A stretch of 64,000 bases of DNA from Escherichia coli (lineage in GTDB: Bacteria; Pseudomonadota; Gammaproteobacteria; Enterobacterales; Enterobacteriaceae). The DNA is taken from NCBI RefSeq assembly GCF_029227855.1, contig NZ_CP074356.1; one strand, 5' to 3'. The position numbers and the translations under genes are program-made. The notes beneath the pieces were generated by a model. It did no database searches, was not told where the DNA came from, and saw only the letters and a list, made by a program, of their open reading frames with translations. Below are positions 1,060 through 64,000 of the stretch, piece after piece (the stretch's first letter is position 1; each line of letters opens with the position of its first letter).

Positions 1060-1992
1060 ATGCCGAAATTTCGAGTTTCTTTATTTAGCCTGGCCCTGAT
1101 GCTGGCTGTGCCTTTGGCACCGCAGGCCGTTGCGAAAACGGCAGCCGCTACCACCGCTTCACAGCCGGAAATTGCCTCCGGTAGCGCGATGATTGTTGAT
1201 CTGAATACCAACAAAGTGATCTATTCGAACCACCCGGATCTGGTGCGTCCGATTGCGTCTATCAGCAAATTAATGACCGCGATGGTCGTGCTGGATGCGC
1301 GACTGCCGCTGGATGAAAAACTAAAAGTGGATATCAGCCAGACGCCGGAGATGAAAGGGGTCTATTCGCGCGTACGACTGAACAGCGAAATCAGCCGTAA
1401 AGATATGCTGTTGTTGGCGCTGATGTCTTCAGAAAACCGCGCGGCGGCAAGCCTTGCGCACCATTATCCCGGTGGTTACAAAGCCTTTATTAAGGCGATG
1501 AATGCGAAAGCGAAATCGCTCGGAATGAACAACACGCGCTTTGTTGAACCGACCGGATTGTCGGTGCATAACGTTTCAACCGCCCGTGACTTAACCAAAC
1601 TGCTCATTGCCAGCAAACAATATCCGTTGATCGGGCAGTTAAGTACTACCCGGGAAGATATGGCAACCTTCTCTAACCCGACGTATACGCTGCCATTCCG
1701 CAATACTAACCATCTGGTGTATCGCGATAACTGGAATATTCAGTTAACCAAAACCGGCTTTACCAATGCGGCGGGCCATTGTCTGGTGATGCGTACGGTT
1801 ATCAATAATAAACCGGTGGCGCTGGTAGTGATGGACGCGTTTGGCAAATATACCCATTTTGCCGATGCCAGCCGCCTGCGTACCTGGATTGAAACCGGTA
1901 AAGTGATGCCTGTTCCGGCAGCAGCGTTGAGCTATAAAAAACAAAAAGCCGCCCAGATGGCGGCGGCGGGGCAGACGGCACAGAACGATTAA
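1060..1992 (+). CDS. pbpG: D-alanyl-D-alanine endopeptidase (PBP7)
   Basis: ORF 1051-1992; start [25 protein letters not shown] (signal peptide) gives 310 aa; SxxK motif [12 protein letters not shown]. Confidence 0.9.
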
Positions 1993-1999
1993 ATGAATG

Positions 2000-2033
2000 A
2001 CGGATGGCGATACTCTGCCATCCGTAATTTTTA
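2000..2033. terminator. Hairpin between convergent pbpG and dld (acggatggc / gccatccgt) followed by AATTTTT
   Basis: 9-bp inverted repeat with 8-nt loop read directly; T-run on + strand. Confidence 0.55.
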
Positions 2034-3746
2034 CTCCACTTCCTGCCAGTTTTTCCGCTTACTGGTTTTACCGATCCCCGGATTCATGCTGTTGGTCGGA
2101 TCGTTCTCGCGATAAAACTTCTGCAACGTCTCCGGTGCTTTATACAAATGACCGACGTTATGCTCGGCAGGGTACTGCGCGCCGCGCTGCTGTAGCAGTT
2201 CCAGCATCTGTTCTTTCAACGCATGCACATCCACGCCTTTTTTAACGATGTAATCCTGATGGAAGACATAGCACATAAAATGGCCGTAATAGAGCTTGTG
2301 CACCAGCTGGCTGTCGATGTCCGGCGGTAAATGCTCATACCACTCGGTGTCGTTACGCCGCAGAGCGATATCCAGTGCCAGAATGTCTTCGACTTCATCG
2401 GAATGCACCGCCTGATAACGAATTGCTGCGCCCGCAGCGGCGAAACGGTGTAAAAACGCTTTGCTACCTTCCTCCGGCGTACAGACAAAGAAATCGCCTT
2501 CGGCCTGTTTGAAATAATCCACCAGCCACGATTTGGCTTCACCGACGCCATCGCCCGCCATTTTTAACAGCAGATGATGCTCGTATTTATCGCGCCAGTT
2601 TTTCATGCGCGGCGGTAAATGGCTGGGGAACAGGTGACCGAATTTTTGCATCGCACGGTCGGTAAAATGCGGACGGAAGAATTTCACTTTCTCCAGCATC
2701 GCATCGGTGCGCCCCTTGAGATTAAAGAAGAACGGCATCTTGTCGGTGCCTAACTTATCAATCATCAGGAAGGTGTCTTTGCCGTATTTTTCCGCAATAT
2801 CGTAGATATCCCGGTGCATATATTCCCCGGCAACCGGCAGATTTTCGAAATTAGCCAGAATATGACGGCGGATTTCGGTCAGCACTTCCGGCTGGTTGGT
2901 ACCGATATAAAACACCTGCTGATTTTTTTCCGCTTCGAAGGTATCAAGACGTACCGCAAAGACGGCCAGCTTCCCGGCGCAACCAGAAGATTCAAATAAC
3001 CGATCCGGATCGGCGTTATAACGTGCGGGCGTGTCGGCTTCAATATCACGAACGCGGTGGACATAGTCATAATCGTGGGCGTGACGACCATCGTGACGCA
3101 CATCGTCATCTTTGATGCGATCGTCATCCAGCTTGCTAAGGATCTGCTCCGGCGTTTCGCCGAGCTCAATCCCCAGATGGTTCACCAGCGTCAGCTTGCC
3201 ATCTTCATTTATACGCGCGAATAACGACATTTCGGTATACGCCGGGCCACGTTGCACCAGTGAACCACCAGAGTTATTACAGATACCGCCGATAACCGAT
3301 GCGCCTATACACGATGATCCAATCACCGAGTGCGGTTCGCGTCCCAGCGGTTTGAGGGCTTTTTCCAGCGAATAGAGCGTGGTGCCCGGATAGGCCAGCA
3401 CCTGTTCGCCCTTGCCAAGAACGTGCAGCTTGTCGAGACGCAGGGTGCTGATGATCACGATATCGCGATCATAGTCGTTACCGTTTGGCGTCGAGCCTTC
3501 GGTCAGACCTGTATTGGCAGCCTGCATCAGAATAATTTTGTCGGCGGTGACGCAGGCTTTCAGCACCCGCCACAATTCCAGTAGTGAGCCAGGGAAAACG
3601 ACAGCCAGTGCGTCGCCCTGACCAGAACGGAAGCCCTTGCGATAGCGGGCCGTTTTTGCGGGATCGGTGAGCAGGTGTGAAGAACCCACCAGTCGGGCAA
3701 GTTCATTCAAAAAGGCTTTATTATCAGTTGTTGTCATGGAAGACAT
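2031..3746 (-). CDS. dld: FAD-dependent D-lactate dehydrogenase
   Basis: ORF 2031-3779; start MSSMTTTDNKAFLNELARL gives 571 aa as in K-12 Dld. Confidence 0.9.
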   Translation of the reverse strand: MSSMTTTDNKAFLNELARLVGSSHLLTDPAKTARYRKGFRSGQGDALAVVFPGSLLELWRVLKACVTADKIILMQAANTGLTEGSTPNGNDYDRDIVIISTLRLDKLHVLGKGEQVLAYPGTTLYSLEKALKPLGREPHSVIGSSCIGASVIGGICNNSGGSLVQRGPAYTEMSLFARINEDGKLTLVNHLGIELGETPEQILSKLDDDRIKDDDVRHDGRHAHDYDYVHRVRDIEADTPARYNADPDRLFESSGCAGKLAVFAVRLDTFEAEKNQQVFYIGTNQPEVLTEIRRHILANFENLPVAGEYMHRDIYDIAEKYGKDTFLMIDKLGTDKMPFFFNLKGRTDAMLEKVKFFRPHFTDRAMQKFGHLFPSHLPPRMKNWRDKYEHHLLLKMAGDGVGEAKSWLVDYFKQAEGDFFVCTPEEGSKAFLHRFAAAGAAIRYQAVHSDEVEDILALDIALRRNDTEWYEHLPPDIDSQLVHKLYYGHFMCYVFHQDYIVKKGVDVHALKEQMLELLQQRGAQYPAEHNVGHLYKAPETLQKFYRENDPTNSMNPGIGKTSKRKNWQEVE

Positions 3747-33617: not shown

Positions 33618-34326
33618 TTATAAATAAATATCCTCCGGCATAGCCGGAGGTTTTTCAAATGCGCCTATAAGGCTCTCTTACCAGCCGCGCCCTAACAGGC
33701 GCACACGATCTGACATTTGCATCCAACTTCGTTACTTACGGCCCGTAAACGGGCTGCCCGGATAGGGAATCGATAACTGCTCTCCCATTTTATCCTCTTC
33801 AAGCTGGTGCTTTATGTAATCCTGTATCTTCGCCGTGTTCTTACCCACCGTATCGACGTAATACCCTCTGCACCAGAACTCCCTGTTCCTGTATTTGAAT
33901 TTCAAATCACCAAACTGCTCGTAAAGCATCAGACTGCTTTTCCCTTTCAGATATCCCATAAAGCCTGATACGCTCATTTTGGGCGGGATCTCCACAAGCA
34001 TATGGATATGATCTGCACAGCATTCAGCTTCCAGAATCCGTACACTTTTCCACTCACACAGCTTTCTCAAAATACAGCCTATTGCTCTACGCTTCTCTCT
34101 GTAGAACACCTGTCTTCGGTATTTTGGCGCAAATACTATGTGATATTTACAGTTCCATCGGGTGTGCGCTAAGCTCTTTTCGTTCCCCATTGGGACCCCC
34201 TTTTGATTTCTTGTTTGACACTTGCAGTTGCCAGACCGCAAGGTGTTTTAACAAATCAAAAGGGGTTTTAATAACTGGCTCAAAGCTGAAAGCTTTCCGG
34301 AACCCCCAGCCTAGCTGGGGGTTTTC
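33618..34326 (-). mobile_element. IS200 insertion sequence (IS200/IS605 family); boundaries approximate
   Basis: Contains a Y1 HUH transposase gene; perfect hairpin cccccagc-cta-gctggggg at 34303-34321; 13-bp inverted repeat ccccttttgattt/aaatcaaaagggg (34197-34265) over the tnpA start; IS200 has no terminal inverted repeats, so ends were set by the expected ~0.7 kb size. Confidence 0.6.
33732..34190 (-). CDS. tnpA: IS200 transposase TnpA (Y1 HUH transposase, 152 aa)
   Basis: MGNEKSLAHTRWNCKYHIVFAPKYRR...HIHMLVEIPP (HUH motif); ORF track extends upstream to 34241 via an alternative start; start coordinate uncertain by about 1 nt. Confidence 0.85.
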   Translation of the reverse strand: MGNEKSLAHTRWNCKYHIVFAPKYRRQVFYREKRRAIGCILRKLCEWKSVRILEAECCADHIHMLVEIPPKMSVSGFMGYLKGKSSLMLYEQFGDLKFKYRNREFWCRGYYVDTVGKNTAKIQDYIKHQLEEDKMGEQLSIPYPGSPFTGRK

Positions 34327-45186: not shown

Positions 45187-45279
45187 TTTCACAACGTTAT
45201 TGTAATACCGCCGTTTTTCCCCGTTTACAACGCGTGCGCTGGACATTACCATCCTCCTCTGCGATTTATTATCGCAACC

Positions 45280-45408
45280 AAACGACTCGGGGTGCCCTTC
45301 TTTGTGAAGGCTGAGAAATACCCGTATCACCTGATCTGGATAATGCCAGCGTAGGGAAGTCACGGACCACCAGGTCATTGCTTCTTCACGTTATGGCAGG
45401 AGCAAACT
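45280..45408 (+). ncRNA. TPP riboswitch (THI element) in the thiM leader
   Basis: aaccaaacgactcggggtgccc...ggctgagaaatacccgtatcacctgatctggataatgccagcgtagggaa carries the conserved CUGAGA THI-box core, directly upstream of thiM. Confidence 0.85.
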
Positions 45409-51889: not shown

Positions 51890-52145
51890 CTTTTAATTCC
51901 TTCATGACAGGTAATGTAAGGTACGCGATGACAATACCATTTAATAATACCTTTTAAATACCTTTGCGGTGAAAACTTGACCGCGGTAACATTTTTTCTG
52001 ATGAATCGAGCCAACAGAAAACGCTGAAAAAACATCCAAAAGATGGAAAAACTCGCCTGTAACGATCAGGATTATGATTGCCCGCAAAAGGCGGGCCAGG
52101 ACAATCCATAGCCGATATCCAATCGGAATTTACGGGAGCATAGTA

Positions 52146-53198
52146 ATGACAGATATTGCGCAGTTGCTTGGCAAAGACGCCGACAACCTTTTACAGCACC
52201 GTTGTATGACTATTCCTTCTGACCAGCTTTATCTCCCCGGACATGACTACGTAGACCGCGTGATGATTGACAATAATCGCCCGCCAGCGGTGTTACGTAA
52301 TATGCAGACGTTGTACAACACTGGGCGTCTGGCTGGCACAGGATATCTTTCTATTCTGCCCGTTGACCAGGGCGTTGAGCACTCTGCCGGAGCTTCATTT
52401 GCCGCTAACCCGCTCTACTTTGACCCGAAAAACATTGTTGAACTGGCGATCGAAGCGGGCTGTAACTGTGTGGCGTCAACTTACGGCGTGCTGGCGTCGG
52501 TATCGCGGCGTTACGCGCATCGCATTCCATTCCTCGTCAAACTTAATCACAACGAGACGCTAAGTTACCCGAATACATACGATCAAACGCTGTATGCCAG
52601 CGTGGAGCAGGCGTTCAACATGGGCGCGGTGGCGGTTGGTGCGACTATCTATTTTGGCTCGGAAGAGTCACGTCGCCAGATTGAAGAAATTTCTGCGGCT
52701 TTTGAACGTGCGCACGAGCTGGGCATGGTGACAGTGCTGTGGGCCTATTTGCGTAACTCCGCCTTTAAGAAAGATGGCGTTGATTACCATGTTTCCGCCG
52801 ACCTGACTGGTCAGGCGAACCATCTGGCGGCAACCATAGGTGCAGATATCGTCAAACAAAAAATGGCTGAAAATAACGGCGGCTATAAAGCGATTAATTA
52901 CGGTTATACCGACGATCGCGTGTACAGCAAGTTGACCAGCGAAAACCCGATTGATCTGGTGCGTTATCAGTTAGCTAACTGCTATATGGGCCGCGCAGGG
53001 TTGATAAACTCCGGCGGTGCTGCAGGCGGTGAAACTGACCTCAGCGATGCAGTGCGTACTGCGGTTATCAACAAACGCGCTGGCGGAATGGGGCTGATTC
53101 TTGGACGTAAGGCGTTCAAGAAATCGATGGCTGACGGCGTGAAACTGATTAACGCCGTGCAGGACGTTTATCTCGATAGCAAAATTACTATCGCCTGA
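52146..53198 (+). CDS. fbaB: Class I fructose-bisphosphate aldolase
   Basis: ORF 52074-53198; start [19 protein letters not shown] gives 350 aa. Confidence 0.9.
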
Positions 53199-53237
53199 TA
53201 CGCCTTATACGAACAGCACTACCCCGTATGACGGAAA

Positions 53238-53260
53238 AGGCGTTTACGTCGCATCCGGCA
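53238..53260. repeat. REP-like element downstream of fbaB
   Basis: ggcgtttacgtcgcatccggca resembles the REP consensus. Confidence 0.5.
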
Positions 53261-53283
53261 TAAAAACACGCGCACTTTGCTAC

Positions 53284-53310
53284 GGCTTCCCTATCGGGAG
53301 GCCGTTTTTT
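53284..53310 (+). terminator. Intrinsic terminator downstream of fbaB (ggcttccc-tatc-gggaggcc then T7)
   Basis: Hairpin with one G-U pair and T-run read directly. Confidence 0.6.
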
Positions 53311-53371
53311 TGCCTGTCATTCTGATTAATTTTCGAATTGTCGTTTTTGTGATCGTTATCTCGACATTTAA

Positions 53372-55571
<2,200 letters not shown>

Positions 55572-55580
55572 GGACGGTAT

Positions 55581-56033
55581 ATGACTAACCTGTTTGTTCG
55601 TAGCGGAATTTCTTTTGTCGATCGTAGCGAAGTTTTAACCCATATCGGTAATGAGATGCTCGCGAAAGGTGTGGTTCATGATACCTGGCCACAGGCATTA
55701 ATTGCCAGAGAAGCAGAATTCCCTACCGGGATAATGCTTGAGCAGCACGCCATTGCAATACCGCATTGTGAGGCGATTCATGCTAAGTCGTCAGCCATTT
55801 ATCTGTTAAGGCCAACAAATAAAGTTCATTTTCAGCAAGCGGATGATGATAACGACGTGGCGGTATCGTTGGTTATTGCGTTAATTGTGGAAAATCCGCA
55901 GCAGCAATTGAAACTTTTACGCTGTTTATTTGGCAAGTTACAACAGCCCGAGATCGTCGAGACACTAATCACTCTTCATGAAACCCAGTTAAAGGAATAC
56001 TTCACAAAGTATGTTTTAGATTCAGACGAATAA
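55581..56033 (+). CDS. gatA: Galactitol PTS EIIA component
   Basis: 150 aa. Confidence 0.9.
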   Translation: MTNLFVRSGISFVDRSEVLTHIGNEMLAKGVVHDTWPQALIAREAEFPTGIMLEQHAIAIPHCEAIHAKSSAIYLLRPTNKVHFQQADDDNDVAVSLVIALIVENPQQQLKLLRCLFGKLQQPEIVETLITLHETQLKEYFTKYVLDSDE

Positions 56034-56063
56034 ATCCCTCTGTAACAATAAAAAGGACTATTT

Positions 56064-56348
56064 ATGAAACGCAAGATTATTGTCGCTTGCGGAGGCGCGG
56101 TTGCGACCTCTACGATGGCGGCGGAAGAAATTAAAGAGTTGTGTCAGAGTCATAATATTCCTGTTGAATTAATCCAGTGTCGGGTTAATGAAATAGAGAC
56201 CTATATGGATGGTGTGCATTTGATATGTACTACCGCCAAAGTTGACCGTAGTTTTGGCGATATTCCGTTAGTTCACGGCATGCCTTTTGTTTCTGGTGTC
56301 GGTATCGAAGCATTACAAAATAAAATTCTGACTATCTTACAGGGGTGA
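56064..56348 (+). CDS. gatB: Galactitol PTS EIIB component
   Basis: 94 aa; [17 protein letters not shown] with active-site Cys. Confidence 0.9.
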
Positions 56349-56351
56349 CCT

Positions 56352-57707
56352 ATGTTTTCAGAAGTCATGCGTTATATTCTCGACCTCGGCCCTACGGTGA
56401 TGCTGCCGATTGTCATCATTATTTTTTCTAAAATATTAGGCATGAAGGCAGGCGATTGCTTTAAAGCAGGTCTGCATATCGGGATTGGCTTTGTTGGCAT
56501 TGGCCTTGTGATTGGCTTAATGCTGGATTCCATTGGTCCGGCGGCGAAAGCGATGGCGGAAAATTTCGACCTGAATCTGCATGTGGTCGATGTCGGCTGG
56601 CCGGGCTCTTCACCAATGACCTGGGCGTCGCAAATTGCGCTGGTGGCGATTCCGATTGCGATTCTGGTTAACGTGGCGATGTTACTGACCCGTATGACGC
56701 GGGTGGTAAATGTTGATATCTGGAATATCTGGCATATGACCTTCACCGGCGCGTTGCTGCATCTGGCAACCGGTTCATGGATGATAGGGATGGCGGGTGT
56801 GGTAATTCACGCGGCGTTTGTTTATAAGCTCGGCGACTGGTTTGCCCGCGATACCCGAAATTTCTTTGAGCTGGAAGGCATTGCTATTCCGCACGGTACG
56901 TCGGCGTATCTGGGGCCAATTGCGGTGCTGGTCGATGCTATCATCGAGAAAATCCCAGGCGTTAACCGAATTAAATTTAGTGCCGATGATATTCAGCGCA
57001 AGTTTGGCCCATTTGGCGAACCTGTCACCGTGGGTTTTGTGATGGGGCTGATTATCGGCATCCTCGCGGGTTACGATGTCAAAGGTGTATTGCAGCTGGC
57101 GGTAAAGACGGCGGCAGTTATGCTGCTGATGCCGCGGGTGATTAAACCCATCATGGATGGTTTAACGCCCATCGCTAAGCAGGCCCGTAGTCGTTTACAG
57201 GCGAAGTTCGGCGGTCAGGAGTTCCTGATTTGCCTTGATCCGGCGTTGCTGCTGGGGCATACGGCGGTGGTATCGGCAAGCCTGATTTTTATCCCTCTCA
57301 CCATTTTAATTGCTGTTTGTGTTCCGGGTAATCAGGTGCTGCCGTTTGGCGATCTTGCAACTATCGGCTTCTTCGTGGCGATGGCGGTCGCGGTGCATCG
57401 TGGAAATCTGTTCCGCACCTTAATCTCGGGTGTCATCATTATGAGCATCACCCTGTGGATCGCGACGCAAACTATTGTTTTGCACACCCAACTGGCGGCT
57501 AATGCTGGGGCGTTAAAAGCCGGGGGTATGGTGGCTTCAATGGATCAGGGCGGTTCTCCCATTACCTGGTTACTGATTCAGGTTTTCTCCCCGCAAAATA
57601 TTCCCGGTTTCATTATTATCGGTGCCATTTATCTTACCGGTATTTTCATGACCTGGCGTAGAGCGCGCGGCTTTATTAAACAAGAGAAAGCCGTTCTCGC
57701 AGAATAA
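56352..57707 (+). CDS. gatC: Galactitol PTS EIIC permease
   Basis: 451 aa polytopic membrane protein. Confidence 0.9.
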   Translation: MFSEVMRYILDLGPTVMLPIVIIIFSKILGMKAGDCFKAGLHIGIGFVGIGLVIGLMLDSIGPAAKAMAENFDLNLHVVDVGWPGSSPMTWASQIALVAIPIAILVNVAMLLTRMTRVVNVDIWNIWHMTFTGALLHLATGSWMIGMAGVVIHAAFVYKLGDWFARDTRNFFELEGIAIPHGTSAYLGPIAVLVDAIIEKIPGVNRIKFSADDIQRKFGPFGEPVTVGFVMGLIIGILAGYDVKGVLQLAVKTAAVMLLMPRVIKPIMDGLTPIAKQARSRLQAKFGGQEFLICLDPALLLGHTAVVSASLIFIPLTILIAVCVPGNQVLPFGDLATIGFFVAMAVAVHRGNLFRTLISGVIIMSITLWIATQTIVLHTQLAANAGALKAGGMVASMDQGGSPITWLLIQVFSPQNIPGFIIIGAIYLTGIFMTWRRARGFIKQEKAVLAE

Positions 57708-57754
57708 TTTTTACCTGAGGGGGAGGTTATCCCCCTTAATAATCAGGAGTTTTT

Positions 57755-58795
57755 ATGAAATCAGTGGTGAATGATACTGATGGTATCGTGCGCGTTGCAG
57801 AAAGCGTCATTCCTGAAATTAAACATCAGGATGAGGTGCGGGTAAAAATTGCCAGCTCGGGATTATGTGGTTCCGATTTACCCAGGATATTTAAAAATGG
57901 TGCACATTATTATCCAATAACGTTAGGCCATGAATTTAGCGGCTATATTGATGCGGTGGGATCCGGTGTTGATGATTTACACCCTGGCGATGCGGTTGCC
58001 TGTGTGCCGTTATTACCCTGTTTTACTTGTCCAGAGTGTCTAAAAGGGTTTTATTCCCAGTGCGCAAAATATGATTTTATTGGCTCGCGGCGTGATGGTG
58101 GATTTGCTGAATATATTGTCGTTAAGCGAAAAAATGTCTTTGCTCTACCCACGGATATGTCTATTGAGGATGGGGCTTTTATTGAGCCGATTACCGTTGG
58201 CCTGCATGCTTTTCATTTAGCGCAAGGTTGTGAGAATAAAAACGTTATTATTATTGGTGCCGGAACCATTGGCCTGCTGGCAATTCAGTGCGCTGTCGCG
58301 CTGGGAGCAAAGAGTGTGACGGCTATCGACATTAGCTCAGAAAAACTGGCACTGGCAAAATCTTTCGGTGCGATGCAAACATTTAACAGCCTTGAAATGA
58401 GCGCGCCGCAAATGCAGGGCGTTTTACGCGAGCTGCGCTTTAATCAGCTTATCCTCGAGACGGCTGGTGTCCCGCAAACCGTCGAACTGGCGGTAGAGAT
58501 TGCCGGGCCTCATGCCCAGCTGGCGCTGGTGGGCACGTTGCATCAGGATCTGCATTTAACATCGACAACGTTTGGCAAAATATTACGTAAAGAGCTGACG
58601 GTTATCGGCAGCTGGATGAACTACTCCAGCCCTTGGCCGGGGCAGGAGTGGGAAACGGCGAGCCGGTTGCTGACAGAACGTAAGTTAAGCCTGGAGCCAT
58701 TAATCGCTCACCGTGGAAGCTTTGAAAGCTTCACCCAGGCGGTGCGTGACATCGCTCGTAATGCTATGCCGGGCAAAGTGTTGCTCATTCCCTGA
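57755..58795 (+). CDS. gatD: Galactitol-1-phosphate 5-dehydrogenase (Zn-dependent MDR family)
   Basis: 346 aa; GHEFSG zinc motif and GAGTIGL NAD-binding motif. Confidence 0.9.
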   Translation: MKSVVNDTDGIVRVAESVIPEIKHQDEVRVKIASSGLCGSDLPRIFKNGAHYYPITLGHEFSGYIDAVGSGVDDLHPGDAVACVPLLPCFTCPECLKGFYSQCAKYDFIGSRRDGGFAEYIVVKRKNVFALPTDMSIEDGAFIEPITVGLHAFHLAQGCENKNVIIIGAGTIGLLAIQCAVALGAKSVTAIDISSEKLALAKSFGAMQTFNSLEMSAPQMQGVLRELRFNQLILETAGVPQTVELAVEIAGPHAQLALVGTLHQDLHLTSTTFGKILRKELTVIGSWMNYSSPWPGQEWETASRLLTERKLSLEPLIAHRGSFESFTQAVRDIARNAMPGKVLLIP

Positions 58796-58894
58796 AACCG
58801 CGGGCCAGCGTGATGCTGGCCCGGTATTGTGCAAAACAGATCATTCACCAATGGTCCCCCTTCGTTTACACTAGCCACAATTGAATATGGGTAA

Positions 58895-59674
58895 ATGACG
58901 ATGAATTCATTCGAGCGAAGGAATAAGATCATCCAATTAGTGAATGAACAGGGAACCGTGCTTGTTCAGGATCTGGCGGGAGTATTTGCTGCCTCGGAAG
59001 CGACAATCCGTGCCGATTTGCGCTTTCTCGAACAAAAAGGCGTGGTTACGCGCTTTCATGGCGGTGCGGCGAAAATAATGTCCGGTAATAGTGAAACCGA
59101 GACCCAGGAAGTCGGGTTTAAAGAGCGATTTCAGCTCGCCAGCGCGCCAAAAAACAGAATAGCGCAGGCGGCAGTCAAAATGATCCACGAAGGGATGACC
59201 GTTATTCTCGACAGCGGAAGTACGACAATGCTTATCGCCGAAGGATTAATGACCGCCAAAAATATCACGGTGATTACCAACAGTCTCCCGGCAGCATTTG
59301 CCCTTTCCGAAAATAAAGACATTACTCTGGTCGTCTGTGGTGGGACCGTCCGCCATAAAACACGCTCGATGCATGGTTCCATTGCCGAGCGTTCATTGCA
59401 GGATATTAATGCCGATTTAATGTTTGTCGGTGCTGATGGTATTGATGCGGTTAATGGTATTACGACCTTTAATGAAGGTTATTCGATTAGCGGGGCGATG
59501 GTTACAGCCGCAAATAAAGTGATTGCCGTTCTCGATTCATCGAAATTTAATCGTCGCGGTTTTAATCAGGTACTGCCAATCGAAAAAATTGACATTATTA
59601 TTACCGATGATGCCGTGTCAGAGGTGGATAAACTGGCATTGCAGAAGACACGGGTGAAATTAATTACGGTGTAG
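58895..59674 (+). CDS. gatR: DeoR-family repressor of the gat operon, apparently intact
   Basis: 259-aa uninterrupted ORF with N-terminal HTH and DeoR C-terminal sugar-binding domain. Confidence 0.85.
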   Translation: MTMNSFERRNKIIQLVNEQGTVLVQDLAGVFAASEATIRADLRFLEQKGVVTRFHGGAAKIMSGNSETETQEVGFKERFQLASAPKNRIAQAAVKMIHEGMTVILDSGSTTMLIAEGLMTAKNITVITNSLPAAFALSENKDITLVVCGGTVRHKTRSMHGSIAERSLQDINADLMFVGADGIDAVNGITTFNEGYSISGAMVTAANKVIAVLDSSKFNRRGFNQVLPIEKIDIIITDDAVSEVDKLALQKTRVKLITV

Positions 59675-59696
59675 TATTGCTCTGTATGCCGGATAA

Positions 59697-59728
59697 AGTT
59701 TTTACACCGCATCCGGCATTACGGATTC
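59697..59728. repeat. REP element between gatR and yegS
   Basis: tgccggataaagtttttacaccgcatccggca. Confidence 0.65.
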
Positions 59729-59755
59729 TCCCTGGTTCAAGAGAGAATAGTGTGA

Positions 59756-60655
59756 TTAACGCAACAATGGGCAATCTGGTGGTAATCGACAACGCAACGC
59801 CGCCGGAAGTATTTCAATATGAAAGTTTTGTCCGCTCAACGGTTCGCCATCAAGATTAAAAGTGATTTCGTGTGGGGCTTGTATATCAAACCACGACGAA
59901 GCGCCTTCGATAATATTCGGGTTATCTTCGTCAGATTTTAATGTTGATACGAGAGCCGGAAGAATTTCATCGCCGGTAAAAATGCGCAGTTGCAGCAAGC
60001 CATCGTTAATTAACGCGTTCGGGCACAATTGCTGACCGCCACCGGCCTGACGCCCGTTACCAATACCAATGACCAGGGCGTCACCTTGCCAGTGAAAGTT
60101 TTCACCGCGGATCTCACAACGGTCCGGTTGCAGAGTATCCATGCGCATTAAGCCATGAATGATGTAAGAGACGCCACCCAGCGCGGCTTTTAATTTTTCC
60201 GGCGTTTCTGTGGTAATACGCGTCCCAAATCCGCCTGTCGCCATATTAATAAAACAGGTTTGTTTGTTGACCTGCGCCATATCTATCGCAATGGCGTCAC
60301 CGGCAATTGCCAGTTTCAGCGCCTTATCCAGTGCCTCAGGAATCCTTACACTGGTGGCAAAATCATTGGCGGTTCCTAATGGCAAAATTCCTAGCGCGGG
60401 TATGTCATCCCCCTCACACTGAATCAACGCCGTAGAAACTTCATTAATGGTGCCATCGCCACCACCGGCAATCACCGTTGCGACGCCCAACTTCCGGGCC
60501 TCCTCTACATATCGTGCGGCATCGCCTTTCTCCCAGGTGACCCGCACATGGATCGTCATTCCTTCCTCACGCAACAGCATAATTGCTTCGCGCAATGGTA
60601 AATTGTCAGTACTTTTGCCATTAAGAATCAGTAAGCTGGCGGGAAATTCTGCCAT
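59756..60655 (-). CDS. yegS: Lipid kinase YegS (DAGK_cat family)
   Basis: 299 aa; GGDGT motif ([11 protein letters not shown]). Confidence 0.9.
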
Positions 60656-61069
60656 GATCGTATGTGCCTTTATGATTGGTCTGTAGATAGTGTATAGCAG
60701 AAAAGAAAAGGTGGAGTCAGAACAGGATGAAAGTCGGAGGATAAAAAATCAGTTCAAGTATGGAGGATTCAGTGGTTACCACCAGGAGCTTGCAATGGGG
60801 ACAGTGAATGTTAACGGTAGCCACCGGTAAATTTCAAAAAAGAGCATATACCTAATATTCAACTAAACAGTGGCATCTTCAATATACTATTAAAAATATA
60901 TTAACCCCCCCATGGGGTTACCCGGAAGGGCCTCCGTGTATGTAATTCCTACTTATGTAGGAAATGTTGTACAGAACATTTATTATAATCCTATTCAATT
61001 ATAATAATCATGCCATTATTATATTTAAACACCAGAGCGTGTCGTTGGTATTTAATGGGGGAAGGTGAG

Positions 61070-61387
61070 ATGAAAAAGATAGCTGCTATATCATTAATTA
61101 GTATTTTTCTTATGTCTGGTTGTGCTGTGCATAATGATGAAACAAGTATCGGTAAATTTGGTCTTGCATATAAAAGTAATATTCAGCGTAAACTCGATAA
61201 CCAATACTACACCGAAGCCGAAGCTTCTTTAGCCAGGGGCAGAATTTCTGGTGCAGAAAATATAGTAAAAAATGATGCAGCTCATTTCTGTGTTACTCAG
61301 GGCAAAAAAATGCAGATAGTTGACCTGAAGACAGAAGGTGCAGGATTACATGGCGTCGCTCGTCTGACATTCAAATGTGGAGAGTGA
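61070..61387 (+). CDS. yegR: Small lipoprotein YegR
   Basis: ORF 61010-61387; start MKKIAAISLISIFLMSGCAVH (lipobox) gives 105 aa. Confidence 0.8.
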   Translation: MKKIAAISLISIFLMSGCAVHNDETSIGKFGLAYKSNIQRKLDNQYYTEAEASLARGRISGAENIVKNDAAHFCVTQGKKMQIVDLKTEGAGLHGVARLTFKCGE

Positions 61388-61556
61388 GAATATTTTTTGG
61401 TAAGCGTCAAACATGCGCGTTCTGATTGTGCGTAGCCGGAACCTGTACGAGCACGATGCCGTTAAGTGAAAGGCATCGTGCTATGAAGGGGGATTCTATC
61501 GATGTGGTCAATGGAAGACGGTCACCTGGGATCAATCCGTCTCTATGGTTTATGCA

Positions 61557-61644
61557 CAAAAAATAAGCCCGTGTAAGGGAGATTACACAGGCTAAGGAGG
61601 TGGTTCCTGGTACAGCTAGCATTTTATGGGTTATGTTTTTCAGC
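61557..61644 (-). ncRNA. cyaR: CyaR (RyeE) Hfq-dependent sRNA
   Basis: Reverse complement reads GCTGAAAAACATAACCCATAAAATGCTAGCTGTACCAGGAACCACCTCCTTAGCCTGTGTAATCTCCCTTACACGGGCTTATTTTTT, which I recognise as CyaR including terminator hairpin and U-tail; directly downstream of yegQ. Confidence 0.85.
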
Positions 61645-61678
61645 GAAACAGATGATAACCTTAATAAATGCAGCTGTA

Positions 61679-61694
61679 TGTGATCGGTTTCTAA
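61679..61694 (-). promoter_or_regulatory. Probable CRP site (tgtga-tcggtt-tctaa) centred about 42 bp upstream of the cyaR 5' end
   Basis: One consensus half-site and one degenerate half-site at class II spacing; cyaR is known to be CRP-activated. Confidence 0.5.
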
Positions 61695-61728
61695 GAATTT
61701 TCCATCCGGGAAAAATAATCGAAATTAA

Positions 61729-63090
61729 TCACTTACCGTGGGGGTTACGCGTGGTTTCCCCGGAGAAATTACGCATCAGCAGCGCGTAATTTAGCTCAAG
61801 ATCCTGCGGCACCGGGATCCACACAGTATAACCATCGCCCGGTGCGACCGGCATTGCTTCGCCTTTGGCGTTTTCCATGTGCTCAAGGGTAAAGTTAATG
61901 TTCCCTTGCGGCGTCATCAGCTCAAGGCTGTCGCCAACGGAGAATTTATTTTTCACCGCTACCGCCGCGAGGTCGCCCTTGCGCTCACTGGTAAACTCAC
62001 CAACAAACTGCTGGCGGTCAGAAACTGAATAACCGTATTCGTAGTTCTGATAATCGTCGTGAGTATGACGACGCAGGAAACCTTCGGTATAGCCACGATG
62101 CGCCAGACCTTCCAGGGTTTCCAGCAGGCTGGTATCGAATGGTTTTCCCGCAGCTGCGTCATCGATAGCTTTACGGTAAACCTGCGCGGTGCGTGCGCAA
62201 TAGTAGAAAGATTTGGTACGGCCTTCGATTTTCAGCGAATGCACGCCCATTTTGGTCAGGCGTTCAACATGGGCGATGGCGCGCAGATCTTTCGAGTTCA
62301 TGATGTAAGTGCCGTGCTCATCTTCAAACGCGGTCATATACTCGCCCGGACGCTGGGCTTCTTCGATCATAAACACTTTGTCGGTTGGTGCGCCGATCCC
62401 CAGCGTCGGTTCAACGTTTTGCACCGGAATCGGTTCGTACTTGTGTACGATGTTGCCGACGTCATCTTCTTTCCCTTCCTGGACGTTATACTCCCAGCGG
62501 CAGGCGTTGGTGCAGGTGCCCTGGTTCGGGTCGCGCTTGTTGATATAGCCAGAGAGCAGGCAGCGACCGGAGTAGGCCATGCACAGCGCGCCGTGAACGA
62601 AGATTTCGATCTCCATATCTGGCACCTGATTGCGGATCTCTTCAATCTCTTCCAGTGACAGTTCGCGAGAGAGGATCACGCGGGTCAGACCCATTTGCTG
62701 CCAGAATTTCACCGTCGCCCAGTTCACGGCGTTAGCCTGTACTGAGAGATGGATCGGCATTTCAGGGAAGTGCTCGCGCACCAGCATAATCAGCCCTGGA
62801 TCAGACATAATCAGCGCATCCGGCCCCATTTCCACCACCGGTTTCAGGTCACGGATAAAGGTTTTCAGCTTGGCGTTGTGCGGTGCAATGTTGACCACGA
62901 CATAAAACTTTTTCCCCAGCGCGTGGGCTTCATTGATGCCGAGCTGAAGATTTTCGTGGTTGAATTCGTTGTTGCGCACACGCAGGGAGTAACGCGGCTG
63001 GCCCGCATAAACAGCATCTGCGCCATAAGCGAAAGCGTAACGCATATTTTTCAGCGTTCCCGCCGGGGAAAGGAGTTCCGGTTTAAACAT
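61729..63090 (-). CDS. yegQ: Peptidase U32-family protein
   Basis: 453 aa; conserved Cys-rich U32 core. Confidence 0.9.
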   Translation of the reverse strand: MFKPELLSPAGTLKNMRYAFAYGADAVYAGQPRYSLRVRNNEFNHENLQLGINEAHALGKKFYVVVNIAPHNAKLKTFIRDLKPVVEMGPDALIMSDPGLIMLVREHFPEMPIHLSVQANAVNWATVKFWQQMGLTRVILSRELSLEEIEEIRNQVPDMEIEIFVHGALCMAYSGRCLLSGYINKRDPNQGTCTNACRWEYNVQEGKEDDVGNIVHKYEPIPVQNVEPTLGIGAPTDKVFMIEEAQRPGEYMTAFEDEHGTYIMNSKDLRAIAHVERLTKMGVHSLKIEGRTKSFYYCARTAQVYRKAIDDAAAGKPFDTSLLETLEGLAHRGYTEGFLRRHTHDDYQNYEYGYSVSDRQQFVGEFTSERKGDLAAVAVKNKFSVGDSLELMTPQGNINFTLEHMENAKGEAMPVAPGDGYTVWIPVPQDLELNYALLMRNFSGETTRNPHGK

Positions 63091-63291: not shown

Positions 63292-63897
63292 ATGTGGATG
63301 TTAAAGAAGGGATTCACTCTGGCTCTGTTGGTTCTGTTTTCTCTGCCCGCTACTGCCGGTCTTTCGCTGGAGGAGACTGCTCGCAAGGTGATTATCGGCT
63401 TTCAGCAAGAAGATGCTCAATTAATCAACTCATTAATTGATAAAAAAACGGGGTTGTATGTTCTTTTCCACCGTGGCGCTTCGATGGATGTCGAAAATTT
63501 TAAGTCAATTGATTTTAAAACGCCTGTTCCCGAGTATTTGCTGTGGCCTTCGGCAGGGGAGCATATTCCGCGAGATGAAGAGTTTGATAAGAAAACTATC
63601 CCGGAATTTGACTGTGAACGTGGCTGGAATAAGCACGGATATTTTATTAGCAGCAGCGATACACACCATAAAGTCAGCCGTAATTTGGTCTTCACGCAGA
63701 TGTTTGGTTCACCGCGAAACACTATTTCTGATGCGCAGATTGCCGCAGCGCGTCGAATGGAGTACGGGGCCGTGCGTGTGGTCGCTGCGCCAGAAAAGGG
63801 TAGCGACGGACTGGTATTTTATTTAAGTCAACTTTACGGTTATGACACTGACTGGTATCTGACGGTGGTGGATCAGATTGGTGATTGTGGGGCGTGA
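63292..63897 (+). CDS. Hypothetical secreted protein (201 aa), not assigned
   Basis: AAGGAG 7 nt upstream of ATG; N-terminal signal peptide MWMLKKGFTLALLVLFSLPATA; divergent from yegQ; I could not match it to a known K-12 neighbour. Confidence 0.6.
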   Translation: MWMLKKGFTLALLVLFSLPATAGLSLEETARKVIIGFQQEDAQLINSLIDKKTGLYVLFHRGASMDVENFKSIDFKTPVPEYLLWPSAGEHIPRDEEFDKKTIPEFDCERGWNKHGYFISSSDTHHKVSRNLVFTQMFGSPRNTISDAQIAAARRMEYGAVRVVAAPEKGSDGLVFYLSQLYGYDTDWYLTVVDQIGDCGA

Positions 63898-64000
63898 TAA
63901 AGATTTATCCGCCCGCAAGCAGTGATGTTATTTGAAGGGAATGTAACCCCATAATCTGTTGTGAAGTTCCGGATTGCGGGTAAAAAGCGCCTGAAGTTGC

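Follow-up and report, generated by a model that had tools for sequence, protein, structure and literature searches.

The gene gatR was reportedly first described in 1996 by Nobelmann and Lengeler, whose work is also said to be cited for its interruption by an insertion sequence (IS) in Escherichia coli K-12. For Salmonella Typhimurium, a 2017 study by Nolle and co-workers in the Journal of Bacteriology is said to have described a GatR that is autoregulated and acts jointly with CRP, the gat cluster of that organism reportedly being larger, with a second promoter at gatZ, and lying at a different chromosomal site. A paper citing that study states that deletion of the GatR helix-turn-helix (HTH) abolishes repression of the gat promoters (PMC7972205). 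In E. coli, replacement of the MG1655 pseudogene by a PCR fragment from strain HS, extending from yegS to gatD, was found to restore regulation of gat, and in mice fresh IS insertions in the restored gatR made gat constitutive again (Sousa et al., 2017; PMC5850726). Expression of gat has likewise been reported to be higher in MG1655 than in NCM3722, a K-12 strain with an undisrupted gatR, and the difference was ascribed to the disruption of gatR (PMC3045373).

The locus compared here lies in a 64-kb stretch of E. coli DNA, hereafter the window, and very probably carries a wild-type, functional gatR, the product of which would act as the DeoR-family repressor of the galactitol PTS/catabolic operon gatYZABCD and leave that operon inducible, unlike its counterpart in MG1655. 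The ORF list of the window holds a single uninterrupted frame of 259 amino acids with an ATG start at 58895..59674 (+), which the preliminary description had taken as an intact DeoR-family gene of that length. Intactness and family are both upheld, as the frame is open and encodes both the DeoR HTH and the DeoRC domain at full length; as for the length, the frame of 259 amino acids is real, but the likely protein has 257 and starts at 58901. The sequence GGGTAAATGACGATGAATTCA offers two ATGs in this frame, one at 58895 and one at 58901. The RefSeq coding sequence (WP_001295426.1) comprises 774 nt (257 aa) in strains E300010, HS, and JNEC-KY178, the pieces of the MG1655 pseudogene amount to 299 + 475 = 774 nt, and the orthologues of Enterobacter, Kosakonia, Phytobacter, and Superficieibacter (~72-75% identity) are all 257 aa long with the N-terminus MNSFERRNKI. 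The DNA of these four genera lacks the upstream ATG, reading AAATCAATATG where the window has AAATGACGATG. Given the RefSeq start and the orthologues without an upstream ATG, the start at 58895 was rejected in favor of the second ATG, at which the gene likely begins, with a coding sequence of 257 codons plus stop at 58901..59674 (+). Both the 257-aa and the 259-aa forms are present in public databases, and the choice between them leaves the intactness of the gene unaffected. A further orthologue, that of Citrobacter amalonaticus, shows 86% identity.

The two domains are matched far beyond chance and at full length. The DeoR-type DNA-binding domain (Pfam PF08220; region 58916..59074, +) covers residues 8-60 of the 259-aa frame (E 1.3e-16, profile positions 1-53 of 57), and the DeoRC sensor/oligomerization domain (Pfam PF00455; region 59147..59608, +) covers residues 85-238 (E 2.5e-51, profile positions 5-159 of 160), the latter part also matching the solved C-terminal domain of DeoR (7l6l, E 1.9e-11). 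A GatR-specific model was not found in NCBIfam, where the best matches, AgaR and SrlR, each stayed under the cut-off; identity with AgaR (NF040755; 232.9 bits against a curated cut-off of 260) and with SrlR/GutR (NF007753; 226.3 bits against 350) was rejected on these grounds.

In MG1655 (NC_000913.3), gatR (b4498) is a pseudogene in two pieces, 2171727-2171429 and 2170167-2169693, between which, after nucleotide 299 of the coding sequence, lies IS3E (2170171-2171428, 1258 bp, insE5/insF5) with a 3-bp GAC duplication. The MG1655 annotation bears out the IS disruption of MG1655 gatR given in the preliminary description, and its further statement that the insertion renders gat constitutive agrees with published accounts of constitutive or raised gat expression in MG1655, two of which are cited above (PMC5850726; PMC3045373). 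One of these two calls the element IS1 in passing, whereas the MG1655 annotation has IS3E (PMC5850726). With a slash marking each boundary, the K-12 junctions read GGGATGAC/TGATCCTACC and, beyond the element, GGTAAGATCA/GACCGTTATTC, the ends of IS3E being TGATCC...AGATCA; the window reads GGGATGACCGTTATTC instead, so that the empty GAC target triplet can be placed at 59197..59199 (+). With genomes of the K-12 type, the alignment does not begin until query position 402, corresponding to 59197. The insertion falls in codon 100 and, in MG1655, keeps the HTH while removing almost the whole sensor domain. Within the window, gatR carries neither IS3E, the GAC being present in a single copy, nor the IS1 found in copies of the BL21(DE3) type, and alignment with the joined K-12 fragments revealed no frameshift, stop, or insertion: 257 of 257 amino acids and 759 of 774 nucleotides are identical, leaving 15 differences.

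HS GatR, also accessioned as WP_001295426.1, is identical to the window protein by direct translation. The gene differs by 15 nucleotides from K-12 and by 15 from HS, every one of them synonymous; as 77% of sites are nonsynonymous, neutral evolution would yield 15 synonymous and no nonsynonymous changes with a probability of about 3e-10. The 105-bp gatD-gatR spacer is identical to those of HS and K-12. Because protein and spacer match those of HS and only synonymous changes have accumulated, the repressor is intact, preceded by the same upstream DNA as a copy of proven function, and under purifying selection. The spacer (58796..58900, +) is the presumed gatR promoter. It contains a hairpin, GGGCCAGC-GTGAT-GCTGGCCC (58802-58822, +), and a block, CCTTCG(A/T)TTACACTA, that are conserved across the four other genera, and cross-genus alignment further points to a candidate operator-like half-site, TTCGTTT (58861-58867, +), and a -10-like TACACT (58867-58872, +). 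A consensus scan found no sigma-70 promoter in this spacer, and the promoter assignment is therefore drawn from the alignment; two scan matches inside the gatR coding sequence were disregarded. At the opposite end of the gene, REP-like hairpins lie at 59682..59748 (no strand assigned), in the 81 bp that separate gatR from the convergent yegS and that show 4 differences relative to K-12 and 4 relative to HS. The minimum-free-energy fold of 59675-59755 comprises two hairpins at -25.4 kcal/mol, for which a transcript end or stabilizer is the probable role.

The operon itself is open throughout on the plus strand: gatY (53426-54280, 284 aa), gatZ (54309-55571, 420 aa), gatA (55581-56033, 150 aa), gatB (56064-56348, 94 aa), gatC (56352-57707, 451 aa), and gatD (57755-58795, 346 aa) are free of internal stops, have the lengths seen in K-12 and HS, and differ from either by 2-11 amino acids per gene. 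The window copy of gatC is intact, whereas that of MG1655 has become a pseudogene through a frameshift. The order gatD, gatR, convergent yegS is the same in K-12, HS, and E300010, and the order gatYZABCD-gatR is kept in Enterobacter, Kosakonia, Phytobacter, and Superficieibacter. The surroundings vary, as the cluster is flanked by garD and rsmI/lpoA in these four genera and by fbaB and yegS in E. coli.

A candidate promoter/operator region for gatY (53313..53425, +) was delimited from a promoter-like match and inverted repeats, downstream of the fbaB terminator hairpin (53282-53305). The promoter scan places the -35 hexamer TCGACA at 53361-53366 (+) and the -10 hexamer CATTAT at 53385-53390 (+), with TATATT at 53388-53393 as an alternative; a CRP-like site, TGTGATCGTTATCTCG (53349-53364, +), aligns with TCACA-containing sites of other genera. 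The core promoter is flanked by two inverted repeats, I1 and I3, which pair TTAATTTTCGAATT with AAATCGAAAATAAA and TGTCGTTT with AAACGACA. Four candidate GatR half-sites were read from a post hoc motif: TTTCGAAT (53331-53338, +), TGTCGTTT (53339-53346, +), TTTCGATT (53398-53405, -), and a second TGTCGTTT (53408-53415, -). The motif, T[GT]TCG[AT][AT]T, which was picked after the region had been viewed, occurs 17 times in the window, 4 of them within 120 nt at the gatY promoter (0.02 expected), and no other 120-nt span of the 64 kb has three. The cross-genus promoter comparison covered Enterobacter, Kosakonia, Phytobacter, and Superficieibacter and lends the candidate sites independent support. 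In these four genera, CTTTC[GA] occurs 3-6 times in the 150 nt upstream of gatY and in 2-3 copies upstream of gatR (~0.2 expected), and a CTTTCG-N11-CGAAAG palindrome takes the place of the E. coli proximal sites. The E. coli window promoter contains no exact copy of CTTTC[GA], and its sites are therefore treated as degenerate versions captured by a looser, post hoc pattern, that is, as candidates. In E. coli, the CTTTCG repeats that crowd the gatY promoters of the four genera have for the most part disappeared.

These elements suggest a model in which, when galactitol is lacking, GatR oligomers would most likely occupy TTCG-containing half-sites that flank or overlap the CRP-dependent gatY promoter, the candidate distal pair lying at 53331-53346 and the candidate proximal pair at 53398-53415, over the transcription start. 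Looping between these sites is conceivable, and GatR would probably also bind at its own promoter and so regulate itself. Galactitol taken up and phosphorylated by GatABC would give rise to a phosphorylated pathway intermediate, putatively galactitol-1-P or tagatose-6-P, and its binding to the DeoRC domain would free the operators of the repressor. MG1655 differs in that IS3E interrupts codon 100 of gatR and the operon is expressed constitutively. Where the operators lie, whether looping occurs, whether GatR regulates itself, and which compound is the inducer are all inferred, and the model as a whole, with its operator pairs, CRP-dependent promoter, and autoregulation, fits the reports on Salmonella GatR and what holds for DeoR-family repressors generally.

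The preliminary description had called the operon presumably repressible, and this judgment is well supported by a protein identical to that of HS, a spacer identical to those of HS and K-12, an intact gatYZABCD, and the regulation regained with the HS allele (PMC5850726). One might instead take gatR for a silent or decaying frame, unexpressed or nonfunctional, that has simply yet to acquire a disruption, a reading with which the simple sigma-70 scan would agree, as it returned no consensus promoter between gatD and gatR. Such decay is nevertheless extremely unlikely in view of the absence of nonsynonymous changes among the 15 differences from each of two other lineages, the spacer shared with the experimentally functional HS fragment (PMC5850726), the -10-like TACACT block conserved across genera, and a protein that is the common allele species-wide. 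A functional repressor could still meet an altered target, as the HS allele was tested on the K-12/HS promoter and the distal gatY promoter of the window differs from it: at 53316-53337 there are a 2-bp deletion and ~7 substitutions relative to K-12 and HS, including TTTCAC to TGTCAT and TTTCATAT to TTTCGAAT, the -35 hexamer is TCGACA where K-12 and HS have TCGATA, and one base is changed at 53407, between the two candidate proximal half-sites. This haplotype is rare, with 67 of 5102 records reaching 99% identity or more across 53230-53440 and the majority falling at 90-95%. Strain E300010 is identical in gatR yet has a K-12-like gatY promoter, which suggests recombination within the locus. 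Clustered as they are in the candidate distal operator and the -35 hexamer, the differences might weaken or otherwise alter repression in cis and make expression leaky or differently tuned despite an intact GatR. Against this, the haplotype leaves the CRP-like site and the candidate proximal pair as they are in K-12 and HS, save for the base at 53407, and the step from TTTCATAT to TTTCGAAT leads nearer to the motif of the other genera and to the inverted partner at 53398-53405. As TTTCGAAT resembles the cross-genus motif more closely, weaker repression on its account is unlikely, and tighter repression would be the expected effect of the haplotype, if it has any; altered control in cis is accordingly judged very unlikely.

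The permease offers another way in which induction could fail behind an intact repressor. Residue 294 of GatC (codon 57231-57233) is cysteine in the window and glycine in HS, E300010, the four other genera, and the solved GatC of Leminorella (9u82), where it belongs to an invariant stretch, QEFLIGLDPALLLGHT (also written FLIGLDPALLLGHT). It precedes by two residues D296/P297, which belong to hairpin HP3 and form part of the cavity lining in the substrate site of the Leminorella structure (bioRxiv 10.1101/2025.04.02.646771). The exact 71-mer around the codon was found in 1 of 4975 matching E. coli records, that of the source strain itself. The substitution may make transport defective or alter its specificity, it may stem from a sequencing error, and it may equally be harmless. 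Were uptake impaired, no inducer would form from galactitol and repression would persist, so that induction by and growth on galactitol would be lost and the operon permanently shut even though GatR is intact. The invariance of Gly294, its position beside the cavity-lining pair, and the private 71-mer would all suit this outcome, as would the repeated selection of gat loss-of-function mutants, gatC mutants among them, in the mouse gut (PMC5850726). The same experiments produced no gat-negative mutants when gatR was functional (PMC5850726), the rest of the operon is undamaged, a single glycine-to-cysteine change may be tolerated, and an assembly error could account for it; permanent repression through a defective permease is thus considered unlikely. 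A broader proposal joins the intact repressor, the rare promoter haplotype restoring TTTCGAAT, and GatC G294C into a natural galactitol-utilization variant whose operon would be held shut or adapted to a different substrate. This proposal is doubtful, though if true it would show, in a natural strain, the gat polymorphism that the mouse-gut evolution experiments predict.

By its intact gatR, the window belongs with the majority of E. coli. The 960-bp gatR region is present in 5109 of 5426 complete E. coli genomes and lies in one piece in at most 4756 of them, an upper bound, as pieces up to 980 bp apart were joined and copies split by IS1 in the manner of BL21(DE3) count as covered. In approximately 350 genomes the region is found in two places, which is the K-12 pattern. 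An intact gatR is the norm in the species, and it is mainly in laboratory lineages that the gene is known to be disrupted. The preliminary description had presented the state of gatR as a known strain difference, and so it is, with the IS3E disruption of MG1655, known since 1996, as the exception. In Nico21(DE3), a BL21(DE3) derivative, gatR is split by IS1 (locus positions 1606-3155), at a site other than that of IS3E in K-12, the left junction following the position that matches 59134 of the window. As IS1 and IS3E occupy different sites, gatR has been lost independently in two classic laboratory lineages, K-12 and B.

The strain background is equally distinct. That the window does not come from MG1655 was claimed on the strength of gatR and holds on several counts, namely the lack of IS3E, the intact gatC, the 15 synonymous differences in gatR, and one REP copy fewer; since NCM3722 is also reported to have an intact gatR (PMC3045373), this feature alone cannot exclude every K-12 strain, and it is the other differences that decide. 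The REP copy concerned, ~78 bp long, lies in K-12 and HS between fbaB and the fbaB terminator and is missing from the window (53199-53260). Only 10 records are at least 99% identical to window positions 52000-62000; that of JNEC-KY178, a clinical isolate from a human in Japan (NZ_AP045174.1), is 100% identical over these positions and shows zero mismatches over the 14.5 kb compared. Farther along, the CyaR sRNA is encoded at 61561-61646 (-; Rfam, 100.7 bits), and the P2 remnant PR-X (ogrK, yegZ), which adjoins cyaR in K-12, is absent. Beyond trhP (61729-63090, -), positions 63292-64000 hold a hypothetical 201-aa ORF (63292-63897, +) followed by a HEAT-repeat gene, according to the annotation of JNEC-KY178; K-12, HS, and E300010 have yegP-baeR in this place, and the window thus contains a strain-specific insertion that runs past its end. 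Rfam matches elsewhere in the window comprise a Peptidase-S11 RNA motif (975-1055), the OrzO-P antitoxin RNA (21431-21506), the Hfq-binding sRNA STnc490 (34200-34323), and the TPP riboswitch of the thiM leader (45278-45374).

An intact gatR was already known and carries little weight beyond annotation, although it can be used as a strain marker. Data on gat expression in MG1655, where it is constitutive and costly in the gut, are not transferable to natural isolates. GatC G294C and the rare gatY haplotype would matter only in combination with a phenotype.

Among described systems, AgaR, the repressor of the N-acetylgalactosamine/galactosamine operon, shares the two-domain DeoR architecture of the window GatR and is its best curated-family match over the full length, but the score falls short of the family cut-off, so that the window protein is a paralogue; AgaR controls a different sugar pathway. 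AgaR operators have been published as TTTC-repeat sites, and in this they are similar to the CTTTCG repeats that precede gatY in the other genera. SrlR/GutR, the repressor of the glucitol operon, is likewise a DeoR-family protein matched over its full length and likewise represses a hexitol PTS operon, but its operon and genomic context differ from those of GatR. GatR of Salmonella Typhimurium also belongs to the DeoR family and represses gat genes, as the window protein very probably does. GatR of MG1655 (b4498) occupies the same position after gatD and would be the identical protein if its fragments were joined, but that copy is split by IS3E. The nearest counterpart is GatR of HS, which shares with the window the same protein (257/257 aa), the same upstream spacer, and the same place after gatD, and from which the window gene differs by 15 synonymous nucleotides.
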